41,923 bases of DNA from a virus (taxonomy: Duplodnaviria > Heunggongvirae > Uroviricota > Caudoviricetes): IMG/VR virus record IMGVR_UViG_2630968543_000002; one strand, given 5' to 3'. This document shows positions 2,796 to 34,080 of the stretch, in pieces. The notes beneath the pieces were generated by a model, which did no database searches, was not told the origin of the DNA, and worked only from the letters and a program-made list of their open reading frames with translations. Each line of letters begins with the position of its first letter. Position 1 is the first letter of the stretch. A program made the translations under genes and the position numbers.

Positions 2796-3818
2796 TTACT
2801 CGAATTCTGTACGCATATCGTTAAGCGTCATCATGAATTTTTGGTGATATTCATCACCGAGCTTTTCAGCCATGGTGTTAATTTCATTTTCAGCGCGCTT
2901 GAACATCGTTTTTGCATCTTCAGCAGATGGATCCAGGCTATTAAGTATCGCGATGATATATTCTCGAGCTTCTTCTCGTTCTGAATCTGAAATTGGCGAT
3001 AGGTGTTGACGCTCATCGTCAACTACGGAATATTCACCAGTGATAACAGCTGCGTTATCTTGGCTAAGTCCAGCTTCAGCGCGCTCATCCATAACAACAG
3101 CCTTCTGCATCTCAATAGAAACAGGAAGATATTTGAACAGTCGGCGAATTACTGTTTTTTTAGCCATCTCATCGAAGTGATCAACCCATGGGCCACTGCT
3201 ACCGGCTTTGCTCAGTGCACGAACTTTCTCAACGTCTGCCCGGCTCATAACTTCAAATTGGACTCCACCATCTTTCAGTCGTGCAACGGCGTAAACGTGC
3301 GTTAATTCTCCGCGGTCACCTGTTTCGCAAGGTAAATGCTCGAGCGTTTCTTCCAGGCCGTATGAGTAGCTGAATTTGTCGTTTGTATGTACGGTACGAG
3401 CCGAGATACTCAGGATCTGCCCAGAGCGGCGGGCAAGGTCAATCATTCCGCGATAGCCGATAATCAGCTGTGCTTCTGTAGATACGGTTTCCCATCTTCC
3501 ATTTACTTTCTGGCGTTTGTCGAACGGTATCAGGTAAGCGTGTCCAAGAGCTCCACCTGGTTCAAGACCCAATTGGGCACATTGCATAATTGCCCCCAGG
3601 AAGCTGGCTTGGTCGCATGATGCAAGTTTTGGAACCTTTCGGATCTCTGTGGTTGCTATGCGCGCCAGACGGTCTGCTGTCATGTGCTTTGGAAGTGCCA
3701 AAGCCATCTGGGCTTTTATTTTTGGGTCTGCCAGAAGTCCGGCCAGAGTTGTTGGTTTCTCATTATGATGTGCAACTTGGTTACCGGTAGCCGCTGCCTT
3801 AAGTGCATTGATAGACAT
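2796..3818 (-). CDS. recT: RecT-family single-strand annealing recombinase
   Basis: 340-aa ORF with strong RecT signature (RIATTEIRKVP...LGLEPG...GHAYLIPF...QLIIGYRGMIDLARRSGQI...THVYAVARLKDGG...FEVM...GPW...EMAKKT.IRRLFKYLPVSIE). Confidence 0.9.
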   Translation of the reverse strand: MSINALKAAATGNQVAHHNEKPTTLAGLLADPKIKAQMALALPKHMTADRLARIATTEIRKVPKLASCDQASFLGAIMQCAQLGLEPGGALGHAYLIPFDKRQKVNGRWETVSTEAQLIIGYRGMIDLARRSGQILSISARTVHTNDKFSYSYGLEETLEHLPCETGDRGELTHVYAVARLKDGGVQFEVMSRADVEKVRALSKAGSSGPWVDHFDEMAKKTVIRRLFKYLPVSIEMQKAVVMDERAEAGLSQDNAAVITGEYSVVDDERQHLSPISDSEREEAREYIIAILNSLDPSAEDAKTMFKRAENEINTMAEKLGDEYHQKFMMTLNDMRTEFE

Positions 3819-3827
3819 TTTTTCTCC

Positions 3828-4727
3828 TTACTTCATTCTGAAGACGCGTTGTGTCGTTGTTGTTTTGAATTTTTCGAATAACTCAGGGTGTACTGACTGG
3901 AATAGCTTCTGGTCGAATCTGTTGCTGATCTGAGATTTCCATGTGCAGAGCGGCTTTCCGTCCAGGGTCAGGACTGAGTGCTCTTGCATGTACATCTTCA
4001 GCTTCTCTTCTGATATAGCTATTTCTTCTTCCAGTGATTTTCTGCGTGACTTCATGTCTCGTAGATCGTTGAATAGTGCGAGTGCCTTTCCGTCAGCCTC
4101 GATACTTGTCCCGGCATCTTTCTCAAACATCAGCGATACATCGCTTACGCTGGTAGCTTCCGGCGGGTTAAGATTTTTCACTCGGTCCCAGAAAGCGATT
4201 TCTTTTTCTAAGATCGCCTGGATAGTTTCTTCATCACGCTCAACCCGATAGATTCGGAAGTCGTCGCCACCGATAAGCACACCGAAAACGCATACCTGTT
4301 TGTTTGTAACCATCAACCCGTGCATGGCCTGGGCCGTGTAATGCACAGGAATTGCATCTGTCTGGATTTCTCCCCATTCTTTGGCTTTGAACGGACTAAC
4401 TGTTTTGATCTCAATGTTCTCGCCTGACGCTGCTTCTGCATCGATCTCAGCTGCAATAAAATCGTAATCACGGTGGATATAGCGGTTTCCGCGATGAACG
4501 ATTTCCATCCCTGTTTCCTCAGAAAGCAGGTCTATTACGTATGGCTCCATACGCTGGCCACGCGTGAAAACTTTCTGCTTGCTTGGGTCTACTGGTTTGA
4601 CACGTGGCTGGACTTTATCCAGATAAACCTCAAGCGGGGTGCGCCATGGGCTAATTCCAAGAATCCCTGCAACATCGCTTCCTCCGATGTATTTTGTTCT
4701 ATCCATGATTCCAGCGTTCCGCATCAT
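3828..4727 (-). CDS. YqaJ-like phage exonuclease (lambda Exo-type PD-(D/E)XK), partner of RecT
   Basis: 299-aa ORF directly upstream of recT; N-terminal GGSDVAGILG motif typical of YqaJ recombination exonucleases; ATGA overlap with the preceding gene. Confidence 0.8.
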   Translation of the reverse strand: MMRNAGIMDRTKYIGGSDVAGILGISPWRTPLEVYLDKVQPRVKPVDPSKQKVFTRGQRMEPYVIDLLSEETGMEIVHRGNRYIHRDYDFIAAEIDAEAASGENIEIKTVSPFKAKEWGEIQTDAIPVHYTAQAMHGLMVTNKQVCVFGVLIGGDDFRIYRVERDEETIQAILEKEIAFWDRVKNLNPPEATSVSDVSLMFEKDAGTSIEADGKALALFNDLRDMKSRRKSLEEEIAISEEKLKMYMQEHSVLTLDGKPLCTWKSQISNRFDQKLFQSVHPELFEKFKTTTTQRVFRMK

Positions 4728-5023
4728 GCCGCGTCCCTCTGCCCATCAAGCTGATCCGCCAGATCCCAGCGGGCGATAATTGCCATTGCATCTCGCCGGT
4801 AGGCATCCATCAGTTCTTCGAACTCAGGGCTGTCTTTAGCAGCCTCCAGTACTTCCTGACGAACGCCTTTGCCTGTTACAACGTCGAAAGTTGAGGACAG
4901 TTGATGAAGTCGGACGCTCTCAATCAGTTCAACTTGTCGGTCATATAGCTGTTCTGACAGGCGGTAGTCCTTGTCGAATGCCAGCATGATTTTTTGAAGA
5001 TTTTTCTGCTGATTAACGTTCAT
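4724..5023 (-). CDS. Hypothetical early protein (99 aa); sits where lambda carries gam (possible anti-RecBCD, positional inference only)
   Basis: ATG at 5023 preceded by GGAGGG Shine-Dalgarno; stop overlaps the exonuclease start. Confidence 0.55.
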   Translation of the reverse strand: MNVNQQKNLQKIMLAFDKDYRLSEQLYDRQVELIESVRLHQLSSTFDVVTGKGVRQEVLEAAKDSPEFEELMDAYRRDAMAIIARWDLADQLDGQRDAA

Positions 5024-5025
5024 TA

Positions 5026-5178
5026 TCAGCCCTCCCATATCTCGTTATCGTTGGCTACATCGCGAGCTTCTTTGCTGACGAAAGCCCACTTGATGCCTTC
5101 CTGTAAGGTGCGGAACTTCCAGCTCATGAATCCGCATGCAGTAACGCAGTACCAACCGTTGATGATTTTCCACTGCAT
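5026..5178 (-). CDS. Small Cys/Trp-rich ORF (50 aa), first gene of the leftward early operon; not in the ORF track (under 60 aa)
   Basis: Hand translation MQWKIINGWYCVTACGFMSWKFRTLQEGIKWAFVSKEARDVANDNEIWEG; GAGG about 9 nt upstream; lies just downstream of the OL operators. Confidence 0.3.
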   Translation of the reverse strand: MQWKIINGWYCVTACGFMSWKFRTLQEGIKWAFVSKEARDVANDNEIWEG

Positions 5179-5184
5179 AACTTG

Positions 5185-5274
5185 TTACCTCGGCTTGTTA
5201 CCGTTGAGGTAATGGTTATGCGTATTTGGTTTGATGTCAATAGATATGAGTTAAAAAAATTACCCATAAGGTAA
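5185..5274. promoter_or_regulatory. Left operator/promoter region (OL-like): two perfect TTACC-N5-GGTAA palindromes (5198..5212, 5260..5274) plus a TTACC half-site at 5185..5189
   Basis: Direct reading; a minus-strand TTGACA -35 hexamer lies between the two sites (plus 5235..5240, as tgtcaa). Confidence 0.65.
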
Positions 5275-5287
5275 TCTTGATGGCAAT

Positions 5288-5309
5288 AAAAAAGCCGCCA
5301 TGAGGCGGC
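5288..5309 (-). terminator. Rho-independent terminator downstream of the repressor gene
   Basis: GCCGCC-ATGA-GGCGGC hairpin (5294..5309) followed on the minus strand by a 6-U tract (plus A-run 5288..5293). Confidence 0.6.
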
Positions 5310-5331
5310 TTACTTGCTGAAAACTATAGTT

Positions 5332-6667: not shown

Positions 6668-7483
6668 ATGAGCAGACATGCAACAGATTGGGCCTGGGAG
6701 ACAGATCCAGGTAGCTCGTCATTAAAGCTCATACTGCTCTCGATGGCTGACAGAGCCGATGAATATAACCTCTGCTACCCCAGCATAGAACGCCTCGTTA
6801 AAGACACTTGCCTGAATAAAAAAACCGTGCAGGCCGGGCTTATATCGCTCATGAAGATGGGGCTTATTTCAGATACCGGAGAGAGAAAGGGTGCGACGAA
6901 AAGAGTGCGGGTTTTCTCTCTTAATATAACCAAAAACGGGAACATTAAAGGCAACCGGGAAGGGGGTAATGAACCCGAAAACGGTAATGTTACCGAAAAC
7001 GGGAATATACCCAAAAACGGGATGTTGAATGATCCCAAAAACGGGATGTTGAATGATCCCAAAAACGGGATCCAGAACCAGTCATATAACCAGTCATTTA
7101 ACCAAGAGAGGGAGAGCAGGACAAAAAGCGGGGATTCTGTGCCTCATGACCCCGGCGCAAACAACGCCGTGATGAATAACTTTGTTCCTCCTGGTGGGCC
7201 AGGGCAATTAGGCAAATTTGTCATGCATGAACAATGGCAGCCATCAGATGACTTTCTTCGGAAAAGCTCATTGCAGGGGATCTACCTGGACAGCCTGCCA
7301 ACGGCACAGGAGCTTGCAGAGTTCAGAATTTACTGGATGGCTGAGGGTAAGGCATACCATCAGGCACAGTGGGAGCAGAAGCTGGCAAGGCGGCTGCAGA
7401 TTAGCAGACAGAAGCAATCAACATTACCTGATAACAACGTTCCGCACTGGAACAGCCCTGAAGCGTGGGAGGATTTCTTGTGA
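6668..7483 (+). CDS. Replication initiator (lambda O analogue) with DnaT-like C-terminal domain; the gene contains the putative origin iterons
   Basis: 271-aa ORF; N-terminal winged-helix-like region (LKLILLSMADRADEYNLCYPSIERLVKDT), central NG-rich repeats encoded by the iterons, C-terminal FRIYWMAEGKAYHQAQWEQKLARRLQ; GGAG Shine-Dalgarno. Confidence 0.75.
   Translation: MSRHATDWAWETDPGSSSLKLILLSMADRADEYNLCYPSIERLVKDTCLNKKTVQAGLISLMKMGLISDTGERKGATKRVRVFSLNITKNGNIKGNREGGNEPENGNVTENGNIPKNGMLNDPKNGMLNDPKNGIQNQSYNQSFNQERESRTKSGDSVPHDPGANNAVMNNFVPPGGPGQLGKFVMHEQWQPSDDFLRKSSLQGIYLDSLPTAQELAEFRIYWMAEGKAYHQAQWEQKLARRLQISRQKQSTLPDNNVPHWNSPEAWEDFL
6929..7072. repeat. Origin-like iteron array: six copies of CC(A/G)AAAACGG(G/T)A, the last three as 24-bp tandem repeats, followed by AACCAGTCAT direct repeats
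   Basis: Direct reading (copies at about 6930, 6975, 6993, 7011, 7035, 7059). Confidence 0.7.
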
Positions 7484-8265
7484 ACAACGTTTTTACCGCG
7501 ATACAAAACCGTGACGGAGAAGCCCTTTCTCGCATGTCAGGTTATGAGCATCAGTACGTCAACAATGACAATGTGGTGAACATGTCAGCAGAGAGGCTTG
7601 TTGATGCCCTTTTCAAACAGCTGAAACAACTGTTTCCGGCGGCAGTAGTAACCAACCTGAAGACGCCAGAGCAGGAAGTTGCTGCAAAACAGCAGTGGAT
7701 TGCTGCGTTTGCCGAAGGGGGGATCCGAACCCGTGAACAGGTTTCTGCTGGTATGCGCCACGCCCGCGCCAGTGAATCTCCGTTCTGGCCGTCGCCAGGG
7801 CAATTCATCAAGTGGTGTAAAGACAGCAAGATGGTTCTTGGCGTCACCATTGACGATGTGATGGCGGAGTTTCACCGGTACAGCAAGGAAAAAAGTTTAT
7901 ATCCTGGTGGTCCCGAAAGATTCCCGTGGCGACATCCGGTTATGTACTGGGTCGTATGTGATACCCGCCGTGCAATGTATCAGCGCCAGCTTAGCGAGAT
8001 TGAGGTTGAGAAACACGCGCGCAGGCTGCTCGATGATTGGGCGAAAAAGGTAGCTTCCGGACAGCAGATACCCGATCCGGTGATCAGCATACAGGCAAAG
8101 CCAGAACCCATGAGTACGCCTCCGGACACAGGGAGAGACGTTTACCATCCACCAGGGCGAAGTTTCGGGTGCATGCCTAACGCCGCCACCCTTGGGGGAA
8201 TAACACCGGCGCAGTGGCTGATGGAGGAATACAGGCGGGGAAAGGCGGCAGGATTTATCAAGTAA
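7480..8265 (+). CDS. Lambda P-like replication protein (helicase loader)
   Basis: Matches lambda P as recalled (REQVSAGMRHARASESPFWPSPGQFIKWC versus lambda MEQVNAGMRVARRQNRPFLPSPGQFVAWC); GTG start at 7480 with GGGAGG 7 nt upstream, GTGA overlap with the O-like stop. Confidence 0.85.
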   Translation: MNNVFTAIQNRDGEALSRMSGYEHQYVNNDNVVNMSAERLVDALFKQLKQLFPAAVVTNLKTPEQEVAAKQQWIAAFAEGGIRTREQVSAGMRHARASESPFWPSPGQFIKWCKDSKMVLGVTIDDVMAEFHRYSKEKSLYPGGPERFPWRHPVMYWVVCDTRRAMYQRQLSEIEVEKHARRLLDDWAKKVASGQQIPDPVISIQAKPEPMSTPPDTGRDVYHPPGRSFGCMPNAATLGGITPAQWLMEEYRRGKAAGFIK

Positions 8266-8290: not shown

Positions 8291-8302
8291 ACGTCTCGAT
8301 AA

Positions 8303-8317
8303 TTACCTGTGAGGTAA
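8303..8317. promoter_or_regulatory. Perfect operator palindrome TTACC-TGTGA-GGTAA, immediately preceded by GATAAT (-10-like)
   Basis: Direct reading. Confidence 0.55.
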
Positions 8318-8364
8318 TAAAATATTCTAAACTCTATTGATTTCGTGTCTTATGTGGTTTTTAA

Positions 8365-8379
8365 TTACCTCAGGGGTAA
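8365..8379. promoter_or_regulatory. Perfect operator palindrome TTACC-TCAGG-GGTAA, 4 nt upstream of the 8383 start codon; TATGTGGTT motif 5 bp upstream (8351..8359)
   Basis: Direct reading. Confidence 0.55.
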
Positions 8380-8382
8380 ATT

Positions 8383-8730
8383 ATGAGAAAACAGATACAG
8401 GCTCTTGGTCGACTCAAAACAGGCCAGATGAACAAAACAGAATCTGCGTATTGCCAGCACCTTGAGATGCGTAAACGTGCAGGAGAAATCGTCTGGTATC
8501 GATTTGAGGGTATCAAGCTGCGGTTAGCTGACAACACGTTCTATACGCCCGATTTTGCTGTGATGCTCGCCACCGGCGAGATGGAGCTGCACGAAGTGAA
8601 AGGGGGATTCTGGACCGACGACGCCAGGGTGAAAACCAAAGTCGCCGCAGATCAGTATCCGTTCCGAATCATCGGGGTAACGGTTAAACCAAAGAAAGCA
8701 GGTGGTGGCTGGAACATCGAAGAGTTCTGA
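8383..8730 (+). CDS. PD-(D/E)XK nuclease-like protein (resembles DUF1064)
   Basis: 115-aa ORF with putative PD...E.K motif (YTPDFAVM...ELHEVKGG). Confidence 0.6.
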   Translation: MRKQIQALGRLKTGQMNKTESAYCQHLEMRKRAGEIVWYRFEGIKLRLADNTFYTPDFAVMLATGEMELHEVKGGFWTDDARVKTKVAADQYPFRIIGVTVKPKKAGGGWNIEEF

Positions 8731-8791
8731 ATCGACGATCTTTTTAGTTATCAATGTAATCAATAAGTTATGTGGATAAGCGAGGGTAAAG

Positions 8792-9424
8792 ATGGAAAGT
8801 AATATCAAAGGGTTAGTTGCCGCCGGGCATGAGATGGCTTCGGAACTGAAAGCAGAATGTGGTGCCGTTGATATGCGCAGTGTGGCAAAGCTGCTCAGCG
8901 ATTTGGCAACGCAACTGGAAGTGCAACTGGTGCGTGCTAATGTGCTGGCCGAAGACCAGCAGAAAGCGATTGAGTCAATTAAGCAGGCTGATTCGGCTGT
9001 TAAGTTGGCACACGAGAAGTTTTCGGCGCTGGCGGCGGAGAATGCGGGGCTGAAACATGCAATGGCTGTAACTCTTGAGCATGTGTCGGTCACGGATGCA
9101 GGGCAGGCCGGAGTTGCTGCAATGATTATCAACGATGCCCTGCACCACAGCGAAACTCCAGCCACCGATGCTTTTCTGGCTGAAATTCGTGCGGAGGCTC
9201 GCAACGAGGGGATTAACTATACCGCAAGCCGTCTTGCTGCTGCTTTCAACCACGGATTTATCAATAAGTCTTTACGTGAAGTTTTCGACGTTACACGCAT
9301 GATTCTGTCAGCGAAAGAAGAGTTGGCTAATGAACCGCACCCGATTGATGGCCTGTCCGGTGAATATGCGGAGAAATCCCTTGAAGAATGGGCGGAACAG
9401 ATTCGCAAAGGAGCTGACAAGTGA
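8792..9424 (+). CDS. Coiled-coil protein, paralogue A (possibly Ead/Ea22-like; unverified)
   Basis: 210-aa ORF; C-terminal about 90 aa (TPATDAFLAEIRAEARNEGINYTA...EEWAEQIRKGADK) paralogous to the C-terminus of 9840..10640; GAGGG Shine-Dalgarno. Confidence 0.6.
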   Translation: MESNIKGLVAAGHEMASELKAECGAVDMRSVAKLLSDLATQLEVQLVRANVLAEDQQKAIESIKQADSAVKLAHEKFSALAAENAGLKHAMAVTLEHVSVTDAGQAGVAAMIINDALHHSETPATDAFLAEIRAEARNEGINYTASRLAAAFNHGFINKSLREVFDVTRMILSAKEELANEPHPIDGLSGEYAEKSLEEWAEQIRKGADK

Positions 9425-9831
9425 AGAAGATGATTTTTGTCGCGGCATTGTTGGTGAATATCCAACAAGTGCATGCTTCAGCAGCTATTGTAGCCTCTAC
9501 CGCCGCGACTACGGCTGCTGTAGCTGCTGCGAACTCTGCGAATATCGCAAACCAACAGGCACAGCGTGCTGCTAATGCATCAGCCAGCGTTCACTCAATC
9601 ACCATTAAGAGCAGTAAGCAAAATCTGGGATTCATAACGTGCGGCACGCGTTCTAATGAAGCTGTAGGTTCACTTGGATGTACGGTATATGGGGGTAGTG
9701 AGAATAGAGAAATTCCATGGAAAACGTGGCCCGGATACGTTCTTGGCTCGAAGCTCCCGGCCAGTTATGAAGTAAACGCCGTATCGTTTGATCACTATAA
9801 CGGCGTGGCAACGGTCTATTTTGCATATTGA
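9421..9831 (+). CDS. Secreted/periplasmic protein of unknown function (N-terminal signal peptide)
   Basis: GTG start overlapping the upstream stop (GTGA); MKKMIFVAALLVNIQQVHA signal-like N-terminus, then an Ala/Asn/Gln-rich segment. Confidence 0.6.
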   Translation: MKKMIFVAALLVNIQQVHASAAIVASTAATTAAVAAANSANIANQQAQRAANASASVHSITIKSSKQNLGFITCGTRSNEAVGSLGCTVYGGSENREIPWKTWPGYVLGSKLPASYEVNAVSFDHYNGVATVYFAY

Positions 9832-9839
9832 GGCTCCGC

Positions 9840-10640
9840 ATGAAATTCTCCAAATTTTCTGAGTTGGTGAATCGTATTTTGTTGAATCGTATTTTGTCCA
9901 ACAACCACAGCCATCGTCGCGATATGGATGTAACGATCGTTGTTCATTCGCCTGGCAGCATTGGTTCAACACCCTCAGTTGAGGTTCAGTCAATTCACGC
10001 TGGTTTTGATTGGGATTCCGGGAAAGTGCTGATTTTCCCAGCACAGCCACTGACCACGCTAACACCAGAACAGATTACTGATATTACTGATAGTGTGCGC
10101 AAAGGTCAGTCCTGGCACGCATATCAGGAATACAAGAAGCATCAAGAGCAGTTGGAAAAATTATCGATTGAACTTGATACCGCAAAACAGCGCATTGCAG
10201 AGCTGGAGGGTAATCGCGCGGCGCTGGCTGCGGAGAATGCGAGACTGAAGGCGATATGTGAGGATCGCCGCACGTTCATTATGAATGGCGTGCAGCTTGG
10301 TTTTATCAAGGTGCCAACAGTGGAAATAGATCCAGCTCTTGAAACAATTCGTATCGCCCTATCACCACAAAAAACCACTCCTGCGACCGACACTTTCCTG
10401 GATGAAGTGAAGACTGAAGCACGCAAGGAGGGCGCTTACTTTGTGGCGAATAGAATGCTGGCTGCCTGGGAAGCTGGTTTTATTGATGATACTGCGAAGA
10501 ACGCCGCGGATATTGCCCGGATGATTCTTACCTCTACTGAGTTTATGGCTAATGCGCGGGAAGGCGATTTTGACCGCTCATTCTCTGATGGTGTTCTCGA
10601 AGATATCGCTGAACAGCTTCGCAAAGGAGGCAGCCAGTGA
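9840..10640 (+). CDS. Coiled-coil protein, paralogue B (possibly Ead/Ea22-like; unverified)
   Basis: ATG at 9840 with GAGG upstream; C-terminus TPATDTFLDEVKTEARKEGAYFVA...EDIAEQLRKGGSQ aligns with paralogue A; shared ALAAENA(G/R)LK coiled-coil segment. Confidence 0.6.
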   Translation: MKFSKFSELVNRILLNRILSNNHSHRRDMDVTIVVHSPGSIGSTPSVEVQSIHAGFDWDSGKVLIFPAQPLTTLTPEQITDITDSVRKGQSWHAYQEYKKHQEQLEKLSIELDTAKQRIAELEGNRAALAAENARLKAICEDRRTFIMNGVQLGFIKVPTVEIDPALETIRIALSPQKTTPATDTFLDEVKTEARKEGAYFVANRMLAAWEAGFIDDTAKNAADIARMILTSTEFMANAREGDFDRSFSDGVLEDIAEQLRKGGSQ

Positions 10641-11140
10641 GCGAGCTTTACTATCAGACGTTACGTGAACGTTTTTCACCGAAACCAGCGCCTAAATGCT
10701 CTGTTTGTGGCGAGGAAATGTCAATACAGCGCATATCTGGAGCACATGTTGTTTATGCCTGTTCCGGTGAGGGTGATGACGGATATTTTAAGATAGGGCG
10801 TACTTTTGCAGACGAACATTATGAAAAATCACGCGTAACAGTAGTTGATGATAGTGATCCCGATGTGATTGCACTACTGGACGAACTGGAGGCAGCAAAA
10901 TCAAAACTCAACGAGCAGCGCGAGTATTACGAGGGAGTTATCTCTGATGGGTGCAAGCGTATTGCTGAACTGGAAGCGCGGGAAGTTCAATTACCGACTC
11001 GCTACGACCTTCGATATGGACACCCGATAAATGCAGATGAGCGACAAGTCATGATACCTAAAGAAAATGGCAGTTGGCTTTACCTGATTGACCTAGAACA
11101 CGCATTACGCGTCGCTGACATTCGCATCAAAGGAGAGTGA
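10637..11140 (+). CDS. Hypothetical protein with N-terminal Cys cluster (CSVCGEE...YAC)
   Basis: GTG start with AGGAGG upstream and GTGA overlap with the preceding stop. Confidence 0.55.
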   Translation: MSELYYQTLRERFSPKPAPKCSVCGEEMSIQRISGAHVVYACSGEGDDGYFKIGRTFADEHYEKSRVTVVDDSDPDVIALLDELEAAKSKLNEQREYYEGVISDGCKRIAELEAREVQLPTRYDLRYGHPINADERQVMIPKENGSWLYLIDLEHALRVADIRIKGE

Positions 11141-11415: not shown

Positions 11416-12153
11416 ATGACCACTATTACCAAAGAGCGACTGCTGACAATCAGGCAGTGGCGCGAAACATACGGACCTGGTAGCAACGTTGTACTGCCAG
11501 CAGAAGAAGCGGAAGAACTGGCACGAATTGCTCTGGCATCGCTGGAAGCAGAGCCGATAGGTTTCCGTTGCAGGCGCAATGATAACCTTGGTGATTGGAG
11601 TTACGTATATCATCGAGAGCCAGATGATTTTGAGCGCAAACATTTAGTGATAGAGGGCATTTACGCCGCCCCTCCAGCACCGGTAGTGCCTGAAGAAGCA
11701 ACTCCGGAAAACGTAGAAATGCTCTCTGGCTATGTTTCAACGTACAAATTAACCGATAGCGAGCGCGATATTGCTGCCGAAATATGGAACGCCTGCCGCG
11801 CCGCCATGCTTCAGTCCGGAAACTTTCGGGAAAATAAGGATTCGTCAACCAATAATTTTCGGGAAACCTCGGAAACGTCAACCAACTCTCCGGTAACTCC
11901 GGATGGTTGGGTTATGGTGCCGAAGAAACTAACCGCTGAGAACGGCGCTAAGGGTGTGCTATCCGGTGAATTTTCAGAAACTACGTTTATAAGCTGCCCG
12001 GAATGCTTTGGCGATGATGATTGCGATACCTGTGACGGGAGCGGACGAATTGAAATTAAAGTACCAGTCACGTGGACGACCATAAAATCCATCTGGGATA
12101 AAGGTATTGCGCATTTTGCAGCAAAACCGCCGCAGGAGGTTAACCGTGGCTAA
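11416..12153 (+). CDS. Hypothetical protein with C-terminal zinc-finger-like motif (CPECFGDDDCDTCDGSG) and short internal repeats
   Basis: 245-aa ORF; GGA Shine-Dalgarno-like sequence upstream. Confidence 0.55.
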   Translation: MTTITKERLLTIRQWRETYGPGSNVVLPAEEAEELARIALASLEAEPIGFRCRRNDNLGDWSYVYHREPDDFERKHLVIEGIYAAPPAPVVPEEATPENVEMLSGYVSTYKLTDSERDIAAEIWNACRAAMLQSGNFRENKDSSTNNFRETSETSTNSPVTPDGWVMVPKKLTAENGAKGVLSGEFSETTFISCPECFGDDDCDTCDGSGRIEIKVPVTWTTIKSIWDKGIAHFAAKPPQEVNRG

Positions 12154-12766: not shown

Positions 12767-12807
12767 GAGTAGATTATGCATGATGAATTTGATGGGTTTT
12801 GAATACT

Positions 12808-15653: not shown

Positions 15654-15730
15654 TGGCGCGGCATGCAGGATTCGAACCTGCGACCAACCGCTTAGAAGGC
15701 GGTTGCTCTGTCCAACTGAGCTAATGCCAC
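15654..15730 (-). tRNA. tRNA-Arg (anticodon UCU), phage-encoded, 77 nt with encoded CCA
   Basis: Manual fold: acceptor GUGGCAU/AUGCCGC, D-arm GCUC-AGUUGGACA-GAGC, anticodon stem ACCGC/GCGGU with loop CUUCUAA, T-arm GCAGG-UUCGAAU-CCUGC; close to, but distinct from, E. coli argU as recalled. Confidence 0.85.
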
Positions 15731-16378: not shown

Positions 16379-18058
16379 ATGGCGGAAACAACTAAAGAGC
16401 GATTGAACAAACAGTTCGCACAACTTGAAAGCGAGCGTCAGTCGTTCGAGCCGCACTGGCGCGAGTTGAGTGATTACATCAACCCGCGTGGTTCCCGCTT
16501 TCTGACTTCTGAGGTCAACCGTAACGATCGACGCAATACGCGCATTATTGATTCGACCGGGACTATGGCGGCGCGCACTCTCGCCAGCGGCATGATGTCT
16601 GGTATCACAAGCCCCGCCCGTCCGTGGTTTCGCCTGGCTACGCCAGATCCTGAAATGATGGATTATGGCCCTGTTAAGTTGTGGCTTGAGGCGGTGCAGA
16701 ACCGCATGAACGATATGTTCAATAAGTCGAATCTCTACCAGTCGCTGCCGCAGTTATACGGAAGCCTCGGCACATACAGCACTGGTGCAATGGCAGTGCT
16801 GGAGGATGACGAGGACATCATTCGCACAATGCCATTCCCGATAGGCAGTTACTACCTGGCTAACTCACCTCGTGGCAGTGTGGACACCTGTTTTCGCAAG
16901 TTCTCTATGACTGTTCGTCAGCTTGTTCAGGAGTTCGGGCTAAATAACGTCAGCGAATCTGTAAAAAGCATGTGGGAAAGCGGCACCTACGAGAAGTGGA
17001 TTGAAGTGATGCATTCGGTTTACCCGAACATTGACCGCGATACATCGAAGCTGGATAGCAAGAACAAGCCATTCAAATCGGTTTATTACGAGGTTGGTGG
17101 CGATAACGACAAGTTGTTGCGTGAGTCCGGATTCGATGAGTTTCCAATTATGGCTCCGCGCTGGGAAGTTAACGGCGAAGATGTTTATGGATCATCATGC
17201 CCGGGTATGCTGGCGCTTGGACCTGTTAAGGCATTGCAGCTTCTCCAGAAGCGTAAGTCGCAGTTGATTGATAAAGCCACCAATCCGCCGATGGTTGCTC
17301 CGAATTCCCTCAAGAATCAGCGCGCCTCCCTTCTTCCTGGTGACATCACGTATATCGATCAGATTACTGGTCAGGATGGTTTCAGGCCTGCTTATCTGGT
17401 TAACCCCAGTACAGCAGATTTGGTGGCAGACATTCAGGACACTCGTCAAATCATTAACAGCGCCTACTTTGTCGATCTGTTCATGATGTTGCAGAACATC
17501 AATACCCGCTCGATGCCTGTGGAAGCGGTGATCGAAATGAAAGAAGAAAAACTTCTGATGTTGGGGCCGGTTCTGGAGCGCCTGAACGACGAATGTCTTA
17601 ATCCTCTCATTGATCGCTCTTTCTCGATGATGGTGCGTAAAAACATGCTGCCGCCACCGCCAGACGTGATGGAAGGTATGCCCCTGAAGGTCGAATACAT
17701 TTCCGTCATGGCTCAGGCGCAGAAGTCTATCGGCCTGTCCAGTCTGGCGTCCACGGTTAACTTCATTGGTCAACTTGCGCAAGCGAAACCAGAAGCTCTC
17801 GACAAACTCAACGTTGATCAGGCGATCGATGCATTCGCTGATATGTCCGGAGTGTCTCCAACCGTCATTGTTCCGCAGGAACAGGTTGAGCAGGCTCGCC
17901 AGCAACGGGCACAGCAACAACAGCAGCAACAAATGATGGCGATGGGGATGGCGGCGGCACAGGGTGCTAAGACGCTAAGCGAAGCTAAAACTTCGGATCC
18001 GAGTGTTTTGTCAGCTATGGCGAATGCAGTTAGTGGTCAGGGTGGGCAATCACAATGA
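16379..18058 (+). CDS. Portal protein (T7 gp8-like head-to-tail connector)
   Basis: 559-aa ORF directly after terminase; Gln/Met/Ala-rich C-terminus (QQQQQQQMMAMGMAAAQGA) resembles the T7 gp8 C-terminus as recalled. Confidence 0.8.
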   Translation: MAETTKERLNKQFAQLESERQSFEPHWRELSDYINPRGSRFLTSEVNRNDRRNTRIIDSTGTMAARTLASGMMSGITSPARPWFRLATPDPEMMDYGPVKLWLEAVQNRMNDMFNKSNLYQSLPQLYGSLGTYSTGAMAVLEDDEDIIRTMPFPIGSYYLANSPRGSVDTCFRKFSMTVRQLVQEFGLNNVSESVKSMWESGTYEKWIEVMHSVYPNIDRDTSKLDSKNKPFKSVYYEVGGDNDKLLRESGFDEFPIMAPRWEVNGEDVYGSSCPGMLALGPVKALQLLQKRKSQLIDKATNPPMVAPNSLKNQRASLLPGDITYIDQITGQDGFRPAYLVNPSTADLVADIQDTRQIINSAYFVDLFMMLQNINTRSMPVEAVIEMKEEKLLMLGPVLERLNDECLNPLIDRSFSMMVRKNMLPPPPDVMEGMPLKVEYISVMAQAQKSIGLSSLASTVNFIGQLAQAKPEALDKLNVDQAIDAFADMSGVSPTVIVPQEQVEQARQQRAQQQQQQQMMAMGMAAAQGAKTLSEAKTSDPSVLSAMANAVSGQGGQSQ

Positions 18059-33812: not shown

Positions 33813-33966
33813 GGCGATCACCTTTGTAGTTAGGTTAATCACCACCGCTGAGACCAATCAGATGGTGGTGAACTGTGCAGAGTTGGTCTTACCGGCTACA
33901 AAGGAACCCGGCGCACCTTTCGGTGCCCCCACACAGCCCACCATAGAATAGGTGCGCTTTACACAT

Positions 33967-34080
33967 AAAAAAACCGCTTATGCGGCATATGTGCCTCTGT
34001 AGTAATCCGGGAGACCAATCCCGGCACTGGATTTTGCCAGTGCCCGATTACTATGGCACAAGAGGAGTGCGATGTAAATT
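33967..34080 (-). ncRNA. Candidate structured leader or small RNA upstream of the Bro-N gene (tentative)
   Basis: Minus-strand promoter (-35 TTGATT, 17-bp spacer, -10 TATCAT) abutting the operator at 34080..34094; two stable hairpins (34007..34024 and 34024..34043) and a short GC stem followed by seven U (33967..33985). Confidence 0.25.

Follow-up and report, generated by a model that had tools for sequence, protein, structure and literature searches.

The described systems closest to the genes considered here are the Ea22 proteins of phage lambda and of Shiga toxin (Stx) phages, and the EaD and EaE proteins of phage P22. In Ea22, a head and a coiled coil precede a portable acidic C-terminal domain (CTD); the protein is a pro-lysogenic tetramer whose CTD is dimeric, and no partner of it is known (PMC10834534, PMC7093339). 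Its variants keep the N-terminus and the coiled coil constant and vary the CTD; all described Ea22 CTDs are acidic, and that of lambda Ea22 has a mixed alpha/beta fold (PMC10834534). Literature searches on the function of EaE returned only a mention of eaE in a genome description, the results being swamped by the intimin gene eae. Here we analyze two EaE-family genes, A and C, that lie on either side of a third gene, B, in the early-right operon of a phiV10/epsilon15-like (Uetakevirus-type) Escherichia coli prophage and are followed by a fourth gene, D. The prophage is IMG/VR record IMGVR_UViG_2630968543_000002, whose whole stretch of 41,923 nucleotides (nt) is referred to as the window. The four genes, with product lengths in amino acids (aa), are as follows.

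8792..9424, + strand: gene A, 210 aa, ATG start, EaE-family protein, phrog_614
9421..9831, + strand: gene B, 136 aa, GTG start, probable exported small protein, phrog_8805
9840..10640, + strand: gene C, 266 aa from ATG (alternative start TTG 9828), chimeric EaE-family protein
10637..11140, + strand: gene D, 167 aa, GTG start overlapping the gene C stop, Ead/Ea22-like

The A-B-C arrangement is a new combination within a known, uncharacterised family of mosaic genes, and it represents ordinary phage mosaicism seen in unusually clear detail. The evidence presented below makes it likely that A and C came to lie side by side through recombination of EaE modules at conserved junctions and that B is an independent passenger; by analogy, A and C may play an Ea22-like role. 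The locus provides a clean, quantified case of mosaic junctions inside early genes of phages. It reveals no new mechanism or function; its practical value lies in annotation and in domain boundaries for Ea22 and EaE constructs.

Genes A and C share an EaE C-terminal domain

An initial annotation of the window had proposed that A and C share a CTD of about 90 aa and an ALAAENA(G/R)LK coiled-coil segment while having unrelated N-termini, and pairwise comparison bore this out. BLASTP aligned A 78-210 with C 131-270 (C residues here counted from TTG 9828) at 36% identity over 145 aa (E=5e-20). The alignment opens exactly at ALAAENA(G/R)LK and extends to both C-termini, and nothing upstream of that motif was aligned. 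The CTD proper comprises ~89 aa, over which the A-type and C-type are about 41% identical. Both proteins belong to the EaE family, carrying this CTD, with its invariant E-G, A..R, AA, GF, D, RMIL, E, A and R positions, at the extreme C-terminus and a coiled coil with an xLxxENxxLK motif before it. Heptad-compatible stretches cover residues 27-88 of A and 92-139 of C, and both CTDs are acidic, with net charges of -5.4 (A-type) and -6.2 (C-type). The layout of the two proteins and the positions of their CTDs are given here.

Gene A: N-module aa 1-52 (phiV10p46 type); coiled coil aa 53-90 ending ALAAENAGLK; linker form 1 aa 91-121; A-type EaE CTD aa 122-210
Gene C: N-domain aa 1-~95 (phrog_6026); coiled coil aa ~92-139 ending ALAAENARLK; linker form 2 aa 141-177 (phiV10p46 type); P22-type EaE CTD aa 178-266
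9155..9421, + strand: A-type EaE CTD, starting TPATDAFL and ending IRKGADK, whose codons hold the Shine-Dalgarno sequence of gene B
10374..10637, + strand: C-type (P22 EaE-type) CTD, ending LRKGGSQ, whose codons hold the Shine-Dalgarno sequence of gene D

The two CTDs belong to different subtypes. The last 87 residues of C show 84.5% aa identity to P22 EaE (gp32), 94% to the SE1 and ST160 proteins and 83% to the epsilon15 'Eae-like protein', and the CTD of A is of the phiV10p46 ('eae-like') and Stx-phage subtype; in source records, CTD-bearing proteins are named 'Eae protein' or 'ead/Ea22-like'. P22 EaE and the Eae/EaE-like proteins of P22-like, epsilon15-like and ES18-like phages are laid out as A and C are, with the CTD behind a variable head and a short xLxxENxxLK-bearing coiled coil, and all are products of non-structural early genes. 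P22 EaE, however, is encoded in the early-left operon after abc2, whereas A and C follow the replication genes in the early-right operon, and C differs further from P22 EaE in having a phrog_6026 head, a rare partner for the EaE CTD.

A profile search of 1.84 billion cluster representatives gave 266 EaE-CTD matches at E<=1e-3, and every match carrying an organism name came from Enterobacteriaceae or their phages. Of 129 representatives, 117 had the CTD at the C-terminus, 51 had an xLxxENx motif 22-100 residues before it, and just 5 carried the Pfam Ead_Ea22 domain. When heads were clustered by single linkage, that of gene A proved to be the common type for an EaE CTD (a cluster of 73 among 112 representatives) and that of gene C a rare one (a cluster of 2). 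The latter, an N-terminal domain of ~80 aa within gene C aa 1-107 (9840-10160), matches phrog_6026 and no Pfam family. It was found in 124 phage records, with 84 Pseudomonas phages (e.g. LUZ7, N4-like) together with Aeromonas, Klebsiella, Serratia and Photobacterium phages, a range far wider than that of the EaE CTD.

Pfam, NCBIfam and PADLOC hold no model for the EaE CTD. None of A, B, C or D matched NCBIfam or PADLOC (E<=0.01), and isolated modules returned only noise from Pfam at E<=10. The CTD is covered by PHROGs 614, 368, 14548 and 492 (E-values 1e-43 to 1e-66), all labelled 'unknown function'. The analysis thus ties unnamed 'hypothetical' prophage genes to a definable domain family that is absent from current Pfam and NCBIfam releases.

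An AlphaFold2 model of the CTD, built from a 26-sequence alignment, was all-alpha with four helices (predicted local distance difference test score, pLDDT, 60; predicted template modelling score, pTM, 0.37). Foldseek found no PDB match to it below E=1.9, and sequence and profile searches of the PDB with C, B, D and the CTD profile gave nothing meaningful. The poor monomer model may perhaps reflect a domain that folds only as an oligomer. A helix-turn-helix reading of RLAAAFNHGF...LREV was rejected, the modelled loop having 7 residues and the domain being acidic, the C-type helix especially. Reading the CTD as a DNA mimic was judged weak, as its charge density is modest (about -5 to -6 over 89 aa).

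Genes A and C are chimeras

Compared at the nucleotide level, successive segments of the two genes match different phages and plasmids. The best-matching segments were the following, given with their nucleotide identities.

8300-8949: phiV10, 94.6%, covering the DUF1064 gene and A aa 1-52
8944-9431: P13771 ORF15, 83.8%, covering A aa 51-210
9023-10884: P1-like plasmid pDEC12A-1, 97.2%, covering A from the ALAAENA motif, B, C and the first half of D
9408-10160: virulent phage Av-05 (Vequintavirinae), 74.9%, covering B and C aa 1-107
10221-10432: middle of phiV10p46, 81.6%, covering linker form 2
10377-10636: P22 eaE, 78.5%, covering the C-type CTD

The initial annotation had treated A and C as a paralogue pair with a diversifying function, implying that one gene was recently duplicated in tandem and that the N-termini of the copies later diverged or were replaced. 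Their common strand, operon, motif and CTD, and the identical structure of their junctions with the next gene, would fit such an origin. However, DNA-level similarity between A and C is confined to two patches, one of 31 nt (28/31 identical) coding for ALAAENAxLK and one of 22 nt coding for EQ(I/L)RKG, the latter holding the Shine-Dalgarno sequence of the following gene, after which comes a GTGA stop/start overlap. Synonymous sites of the 41%-identical CTDs are saturated (proportion of synonymous differences, pS, 0.68), and each CTD has far closer relatives in other phages (93-100% in IMG/VR loci for the A-type, 94% in SE1/ST160 for the C-type) and stands alone in most of them. These observations argue against a recent duplication, which we regard as highly improbable. 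Nor did the idea of a diversifying pair hold: the CTDs are under purifying selection, with a ratio of nonsynonymous to synonymous rates (dN/dS) of 0.06-0.29 overall (0.11-0.29 for the A-type; 0.06 for the C-type compared with P22), and the diversity comes from module shuffling.

Two copies of the EaE CTD in one element are uncommon. They were found in 0 of 174 phage records and in 7 of 80 IMG/VR loci with an A-type CTD, six of these at the window's spacing of ~1.2 kb, with a single CTD in the other 73. At least 80% of the A-B-C stretch was present in 8 of 5,426 complete E. coli genomes, five times in chromosomal prophages and otherwise in P1-like plasmids.

Match boundaries cluster at short conserved junctions

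The longer of the two DNA patches common to A and C occurs at these positions.

9024..9054, + strand: ALAAENA-coding junction patch of gene A, 31 nt, 28/31 identical to 10219-10249
10219..10249, + strand: ALAAENA-coding junction patch of gene C, a direct repeat of 9024-9054

Breakpoints were taken as the internal ends of high-scoring segment pairs (HSPs) at >=85% identity in the 80 IMG/VR loci with an A-type CTD, and were counted per sequence. Five 10-nt bins (8940s, 9020s, 9130s, 9150s and 9830s) held 86 of 94 left ends, with 22 in the 9020s and 27 in the 9150s. Right ends fell at the gene A stop (9410-9439) or the ALAAENA patch of C (10200-10259) in 80 of 102 cases, 20 of them at the latter. 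Among the best 25 E. coli records, partial matches began mostly at query positions 232-236 (9), 367 (4) and 154 (3) and ended at 1448-1459 (12) and 1411 (3), indicating that several records share exactly the stretch from the A motif to the C motif and carry other sequence on both sides. Protein alignments gave the same picture, with differing heads converging at ALAAENAGLK and differing C-terminal cores bracketed by TPATDAFLAE(V/I)RA and (L/I)RKGGxQ.

A third, shorter C-terminal core was observed in loci L100 (2317-2970) and L013 (2220-2900), where it lies between TPATDAFLAEVRA and ELRKGGxQ behind a gene-C-type N-domain. The junction motifs are thus kept around non-homologous cores.

We propose that A and C are separately assembled members of a family of enterobacterial temperate-phage early proteins, which we name after P22 EaE. 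Each protein would be a string of swappable segments: an N-module, a coiled coil with ALAAENAxLK at its end, a linker that exists in at least two forms, and an acidic, apparently all-alpha CTD of ~89 aa. The two CTDs would be old, diverged subtypes, brought next to each other by homologous recombination that swaps segments in frame at short conserved junctions, the candidates being the ALAAENA-coding patch, the TPATDAFLAE motif and the overlap of RKGG-stop, Shine-Dalgarno sequence and start. A common exchange unit would run from the upstream to the downstream ALAAENA patch and so would take in A from its linker to the end of its CTD, the whole of B, and C as far as the end of its coiled coil.

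A stricter version of this proposal, which we hold to be possible and rather doubtful, is that the junction patches (ALAAENA, TPATDAFL and RKGG-stop/Shine-Dalgarno/start) are partly kept at the nucleotide level as in-frame recombination linkers and that the mobile unit is a split-gene cassette, offset from gene boundaries and flanked by ALAAENA direct repeats. If true, morons such as B would have in this cassette a specific means of moving between P1-like, epsilon15-like and lambdoid elements.

Relation to Ead/Ea22 proteins

Lambda Ea22, P22 EaD and the Stx-phage Ea22 proteins share a plan with A and C, namely a coiled coil between a head and a separable acidic CTD; in A and C the module boundaries are discrete, and in the Ea22 and EaD proteins the coiled coil is long and the head short, and their genes are early, non-essential and mosaic. 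The resemblance to an Ead/Ea22 pattern suggested by the initial annotation proved to be partial. Constancy is inverted, since the A/C pair keeps the CTD and varies the N-terminus, and the EaE CTD is predicted to be all-alpha whereas the lambda Ea22 CTD has a mixed alpha/beta fold (PMC10834534). Pro-lysogenic activity has been demonstrated only for the lambda and Stx-phage Ea22 proteins.

As whole proteins, A and C did not match Pfam PF13935 (Ead_Ea22), a profile of the N-terminal segment and coiled coil, at E<=0.01 or reach its gathering score of 27 bits, and the segments A 1-79, C 1-107 and both CTDs gave no Ead_Ea22 match even at E<=10. Pairwise comparison gave no significant match for A (E=8.3 with lambda Ea22; E=2.5 with P22 EaD) and a marginal one for C, whose match to lambda Ea22 (E=0.018) was confined to the coiled coil. 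Gene D, by comparison, matched Ead_Ea22 above the gathering score (E=3.2e-21, 76.8 bits) and is 54% identical to lambda Ea22 over 72 aa (E=9e-18), with a coiled-coil segment ELEAAKSKLNEQREYYEGVISDGCKRIAELE and a C-terminal part unlike the lambda CTD. Judged by sequence, the true Ead/Ea22-like protein of the operon is therefore the product of gene D.

The part of the resemblance that stood is a common module pool. Open reading frame 15 (ORF15) of the Stx phage P13771 (L005 2042-2767, in the exo-xis region) has an Ead_Ea22 head (E=2e-15, 57.8 bits) followed by an A-type EaE CTD, and its coiled-coil segment LAEDQQKAIESIKQADSAVKLAHEKFSALAAENAGL and its CTD are nearly identical to those of gene A. 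P1-like plasmids also carry Ead_Ea22-type heads joined to a gene A-type linker and CTD. Since the A-type coiled coil and CTD occur behind true Ead_Ea22 heads, EaE and Ea22/EaD proteins draw on one mosaic pool of exchangeable modules, which widens the published picture of three Ea22 variants in Stx phages. P13771, WGPS2 and others have been listed as having no detectable ea22 (PMC10834534). P13771 and related phages nonetheless bear an Ead_Ea22 head fused to an EaE CTD, a combination outside the published classes, and ORF15 seems to represent a fourth, as yet unclassified variant of Ea22 among Stx phages.

Downstream of gene D, positions 11416-12153 encode a 245-aa protein of phrog_60, relatives of which are annotated as DUF551, the CTD of the published Ea22 variant V2. 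Close to the C-terminus of this protein is a double CxxC motif resembling that of DnaJ (CPECFGDDDCDTCDGSGRIE), and PADLOC returned a faint match to PDC-M01B (E=0.003).

Gene B encodes a probable exported protein

The initial annotation placed a signal-peptide protein between A and C, and the heuristic analysis of gene B agreed. The product begins with an n-region MKK, an 11-residue h-region MIFVAALLVNI (Kyte-Doolittle 2.7) and a c-region QQVHA, with predicted cleavage before SA that obeys the -3,-1 rule. The family consensus at this site is QQAQA before SA, A19 and S20 being invariant, although further A-X-A sites in the Ala/Thr-rich residues 20-39 leave the cleavage position ambiguous. Homologues from Klebsiella and E. 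coli phages that are 39-43% identical to B retain a classic short signal peptide (MKKTIIALLCASFTTAANA, followed by A) and both cysteines; the depositors of KLB16 annotated a signal peptide, and one UniRef name is 'Prophage exported protein'. The C-terminal domain of ~75 aa is apparently beta-rich in a low-confidence model and has two invariant cysteines, C74 and C87. The product of B is thus probably exported, its cysteines being consistent with a periplasmic disulphide, and purifying selection acts on the gene (dN/dS 0.20-0.56). Behind the predicted signal peptide, at 9478-9540 (aa 20-40), lies a stretch rich in Ala, Thr and Asn, SAAIVASTAATTAAVAAANSANIA, which is highly conserved in the family and absent from the distant Klebsiella-phage homologues; candidate roles are a stalk, a second hydrophobic segment, or an extension of the signal peptide, which would then be unusually long.

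The B family is small (55 clusters at 90% identity, in Escherichia, Salmonella, Shigella and Citrobacter). Its genes were found in 63 of 5,426 E. coli genomes, at 46 places on chromosomes and 20 on plasmids. The backgrounds in which B occurs comprise epsilon15-like prophages, P1-like plasmids, early regions of Mu-like prophages, a yfdQ/yfdR-type prophage and Av-05. In the Mu-like prophages B adjoins DUF2786, GemA and Mor genes, with no EaE genes there, and a divergent form occurs without EaE flanks in 45-kb (T1-like-sized) Klebsiella and E. coli phages. An exported protein had been thought unusual inside an early operon; since B homologues occupy early or accessory sites in five or more unrelated phage backgrounds, several of which lack EaE flanks, B is not odd in this position.

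Phage morons and early exported exclusion proteins include Sp and Imm of T4, Llp of T5 and Cor of phi80 and N15. Gene B resembles them in its small exported product, its early or accessory site and its movement between unrelated temperate and virulent phages, but it shares no sequence or fold similarity with them, has no lipobox, gives no sign of a separate promoter or terminator, and is coupled in translation to A. We suggest that B is mobile in its own right, a passenger with no obligate partner, and that its small exported product is a periplasmic protein, probably with a disulphide bond; that it acts in the envelope, perhaps in superinfection exclusion, is a guess.

Possible function and alternative interpretations

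From the Ea22 literature (PMC10834534, PMC7093339), the acidic CTDs and the heptad patterns, we infer that A and C modulate early development as Ea22-like oligomeric adaptors. They would be cytoplasmic coiled-coil oligomers that present the acidic CTD to a conserved enterobacterial host or phage partner early in infection, with heads that can be swapped. It is a possibility that A and C hetero-oligomerise through the common end of their coiled coils, which would link two heads to one CTD type.

Several points weigh against this reading of the locus as recombined EaE modules with an Ea22-like role. The clustering of HSP ends is also expected if conserved protein motifs merely interrupt diverged sequence, and the breakpoint counts include related genomes and so count sequences, not independent recombination events. 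In the ALAAENA patch, 7/9 synonymous sites are identical, a suggestive observation and no more, since these sites involve GCG and CTG, codons favoured in E. coli. The Ea22 analogy itself predicts little. The CTD model is weak and without a fold match, the proteins lack matches in the PDB (by sequence or profile), Pfam, NCBIfam and PADLOC, and the AlphaFold2 model of B, built from 32 sequences, was unusable (pLDDT 49).

Two other interpretations were considered. A and C could be anti-defence or host-takeover proteins, the EaE CTD inhibiting a host immunity or DNA-repair factor and the shuffled N-modules widening the target range. Hypervariable early accessory regions, rapid shuffling, acidic CTDs and the apparent confinement of the family to enterobacterial phages (all named matches) would suit such a role, and the idea stays a live alternative because eaE lies directly downstream of the anti-RecBCD genes abc1 and abc2 in P22-like phages. 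It is nevertheless improbable in our view: no PADLOC model matched, the CTD has no structural similarity to DNA mimics or known inhibitors, its charge is the modest one given above, selection on it is purifying rather than positive, and the searched literature contained no experimental hint. We give slightly less credence still to A, B and C being a functional three-gene system, in which the two cytoplasmic, CTD-sharing coiled-coil proteins would work with exported B, for example as a periplasmic sensor or effector. The recurrence of the A-B-C order in epsilon15-like prophages and P1-like plasmids would be expected of such a system, as would the tight coupling of the genes (a GTGA overlap and an 8-nt gap) and the presence of a C-type N-domain after B in 16/16 viral loci with an A-type CTD and B, as well as next to B in Av-05 (E=2e-50). 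However, B occurs alone in early regions of Mu-like prophages and in T1-like-sized phages, and the C N-domain is present in 124 phage records compared with 5 for B. The CTD is single in 73 of 80 A-type loci and in one copy in 174/174 phage records, and the downstream gene lacks an EaE CTD in Av-05, L100 and L013. The motif-to-motif exchange unit of the EaE-module interpretation accounts for the co-travel of the three genes.

Genomic setting and other features of the window

Genes A to D lie downstream of the replication genes and a DUF1064 gene, listed here.

6668..7483: O-like initiator with DnaT and HTH_36 domains
7465..8265: lambda-P-like helicase loader
8383..8730: DUF1064 protein

Gene D is followed by further small genes, with the small terminase subunit at 12799. 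Neighbouring genes of the operon abut or overlap, the TGA stop of A and the GTG start of B sharing the sequence GTGA, and A, B and C would all be translated from the early-right operon, with stop codons that overlap the next start or nearly adjoin it. In a prophage that is 96% identical (L001), the RefSeq annotation has these three genes at 3490-4122, 4119-4529 and 4538-5323. Promoter-like and terminator-like sites in the region were no more frequent than in shuffled sequence, so gene B shows no sign of transcription signals of its own. Antisense open reading frames at 8524..9204, 9670..10065 and 10142..10426 had no PHROG match and were rejected as spurious.

Elsewhere in the window, in the late or accessory part of the prophage, positions 33861-34043 (- strand) hold a C4 antisense RNA (Rfam, 78.6 bits) adjoining an isrK Hfq-binding RNA (74.7 bits), a pair that constitutes a P1/P7-type antirepressor-control RNA module. 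A tRNA-Arg gene (anticodon TCT, for the rare AGA codon) lies at 15654-15730 on the - strand, opposite to the flanking open reading frames, between that of the large terminase and the next large one downstream (16379..18058).

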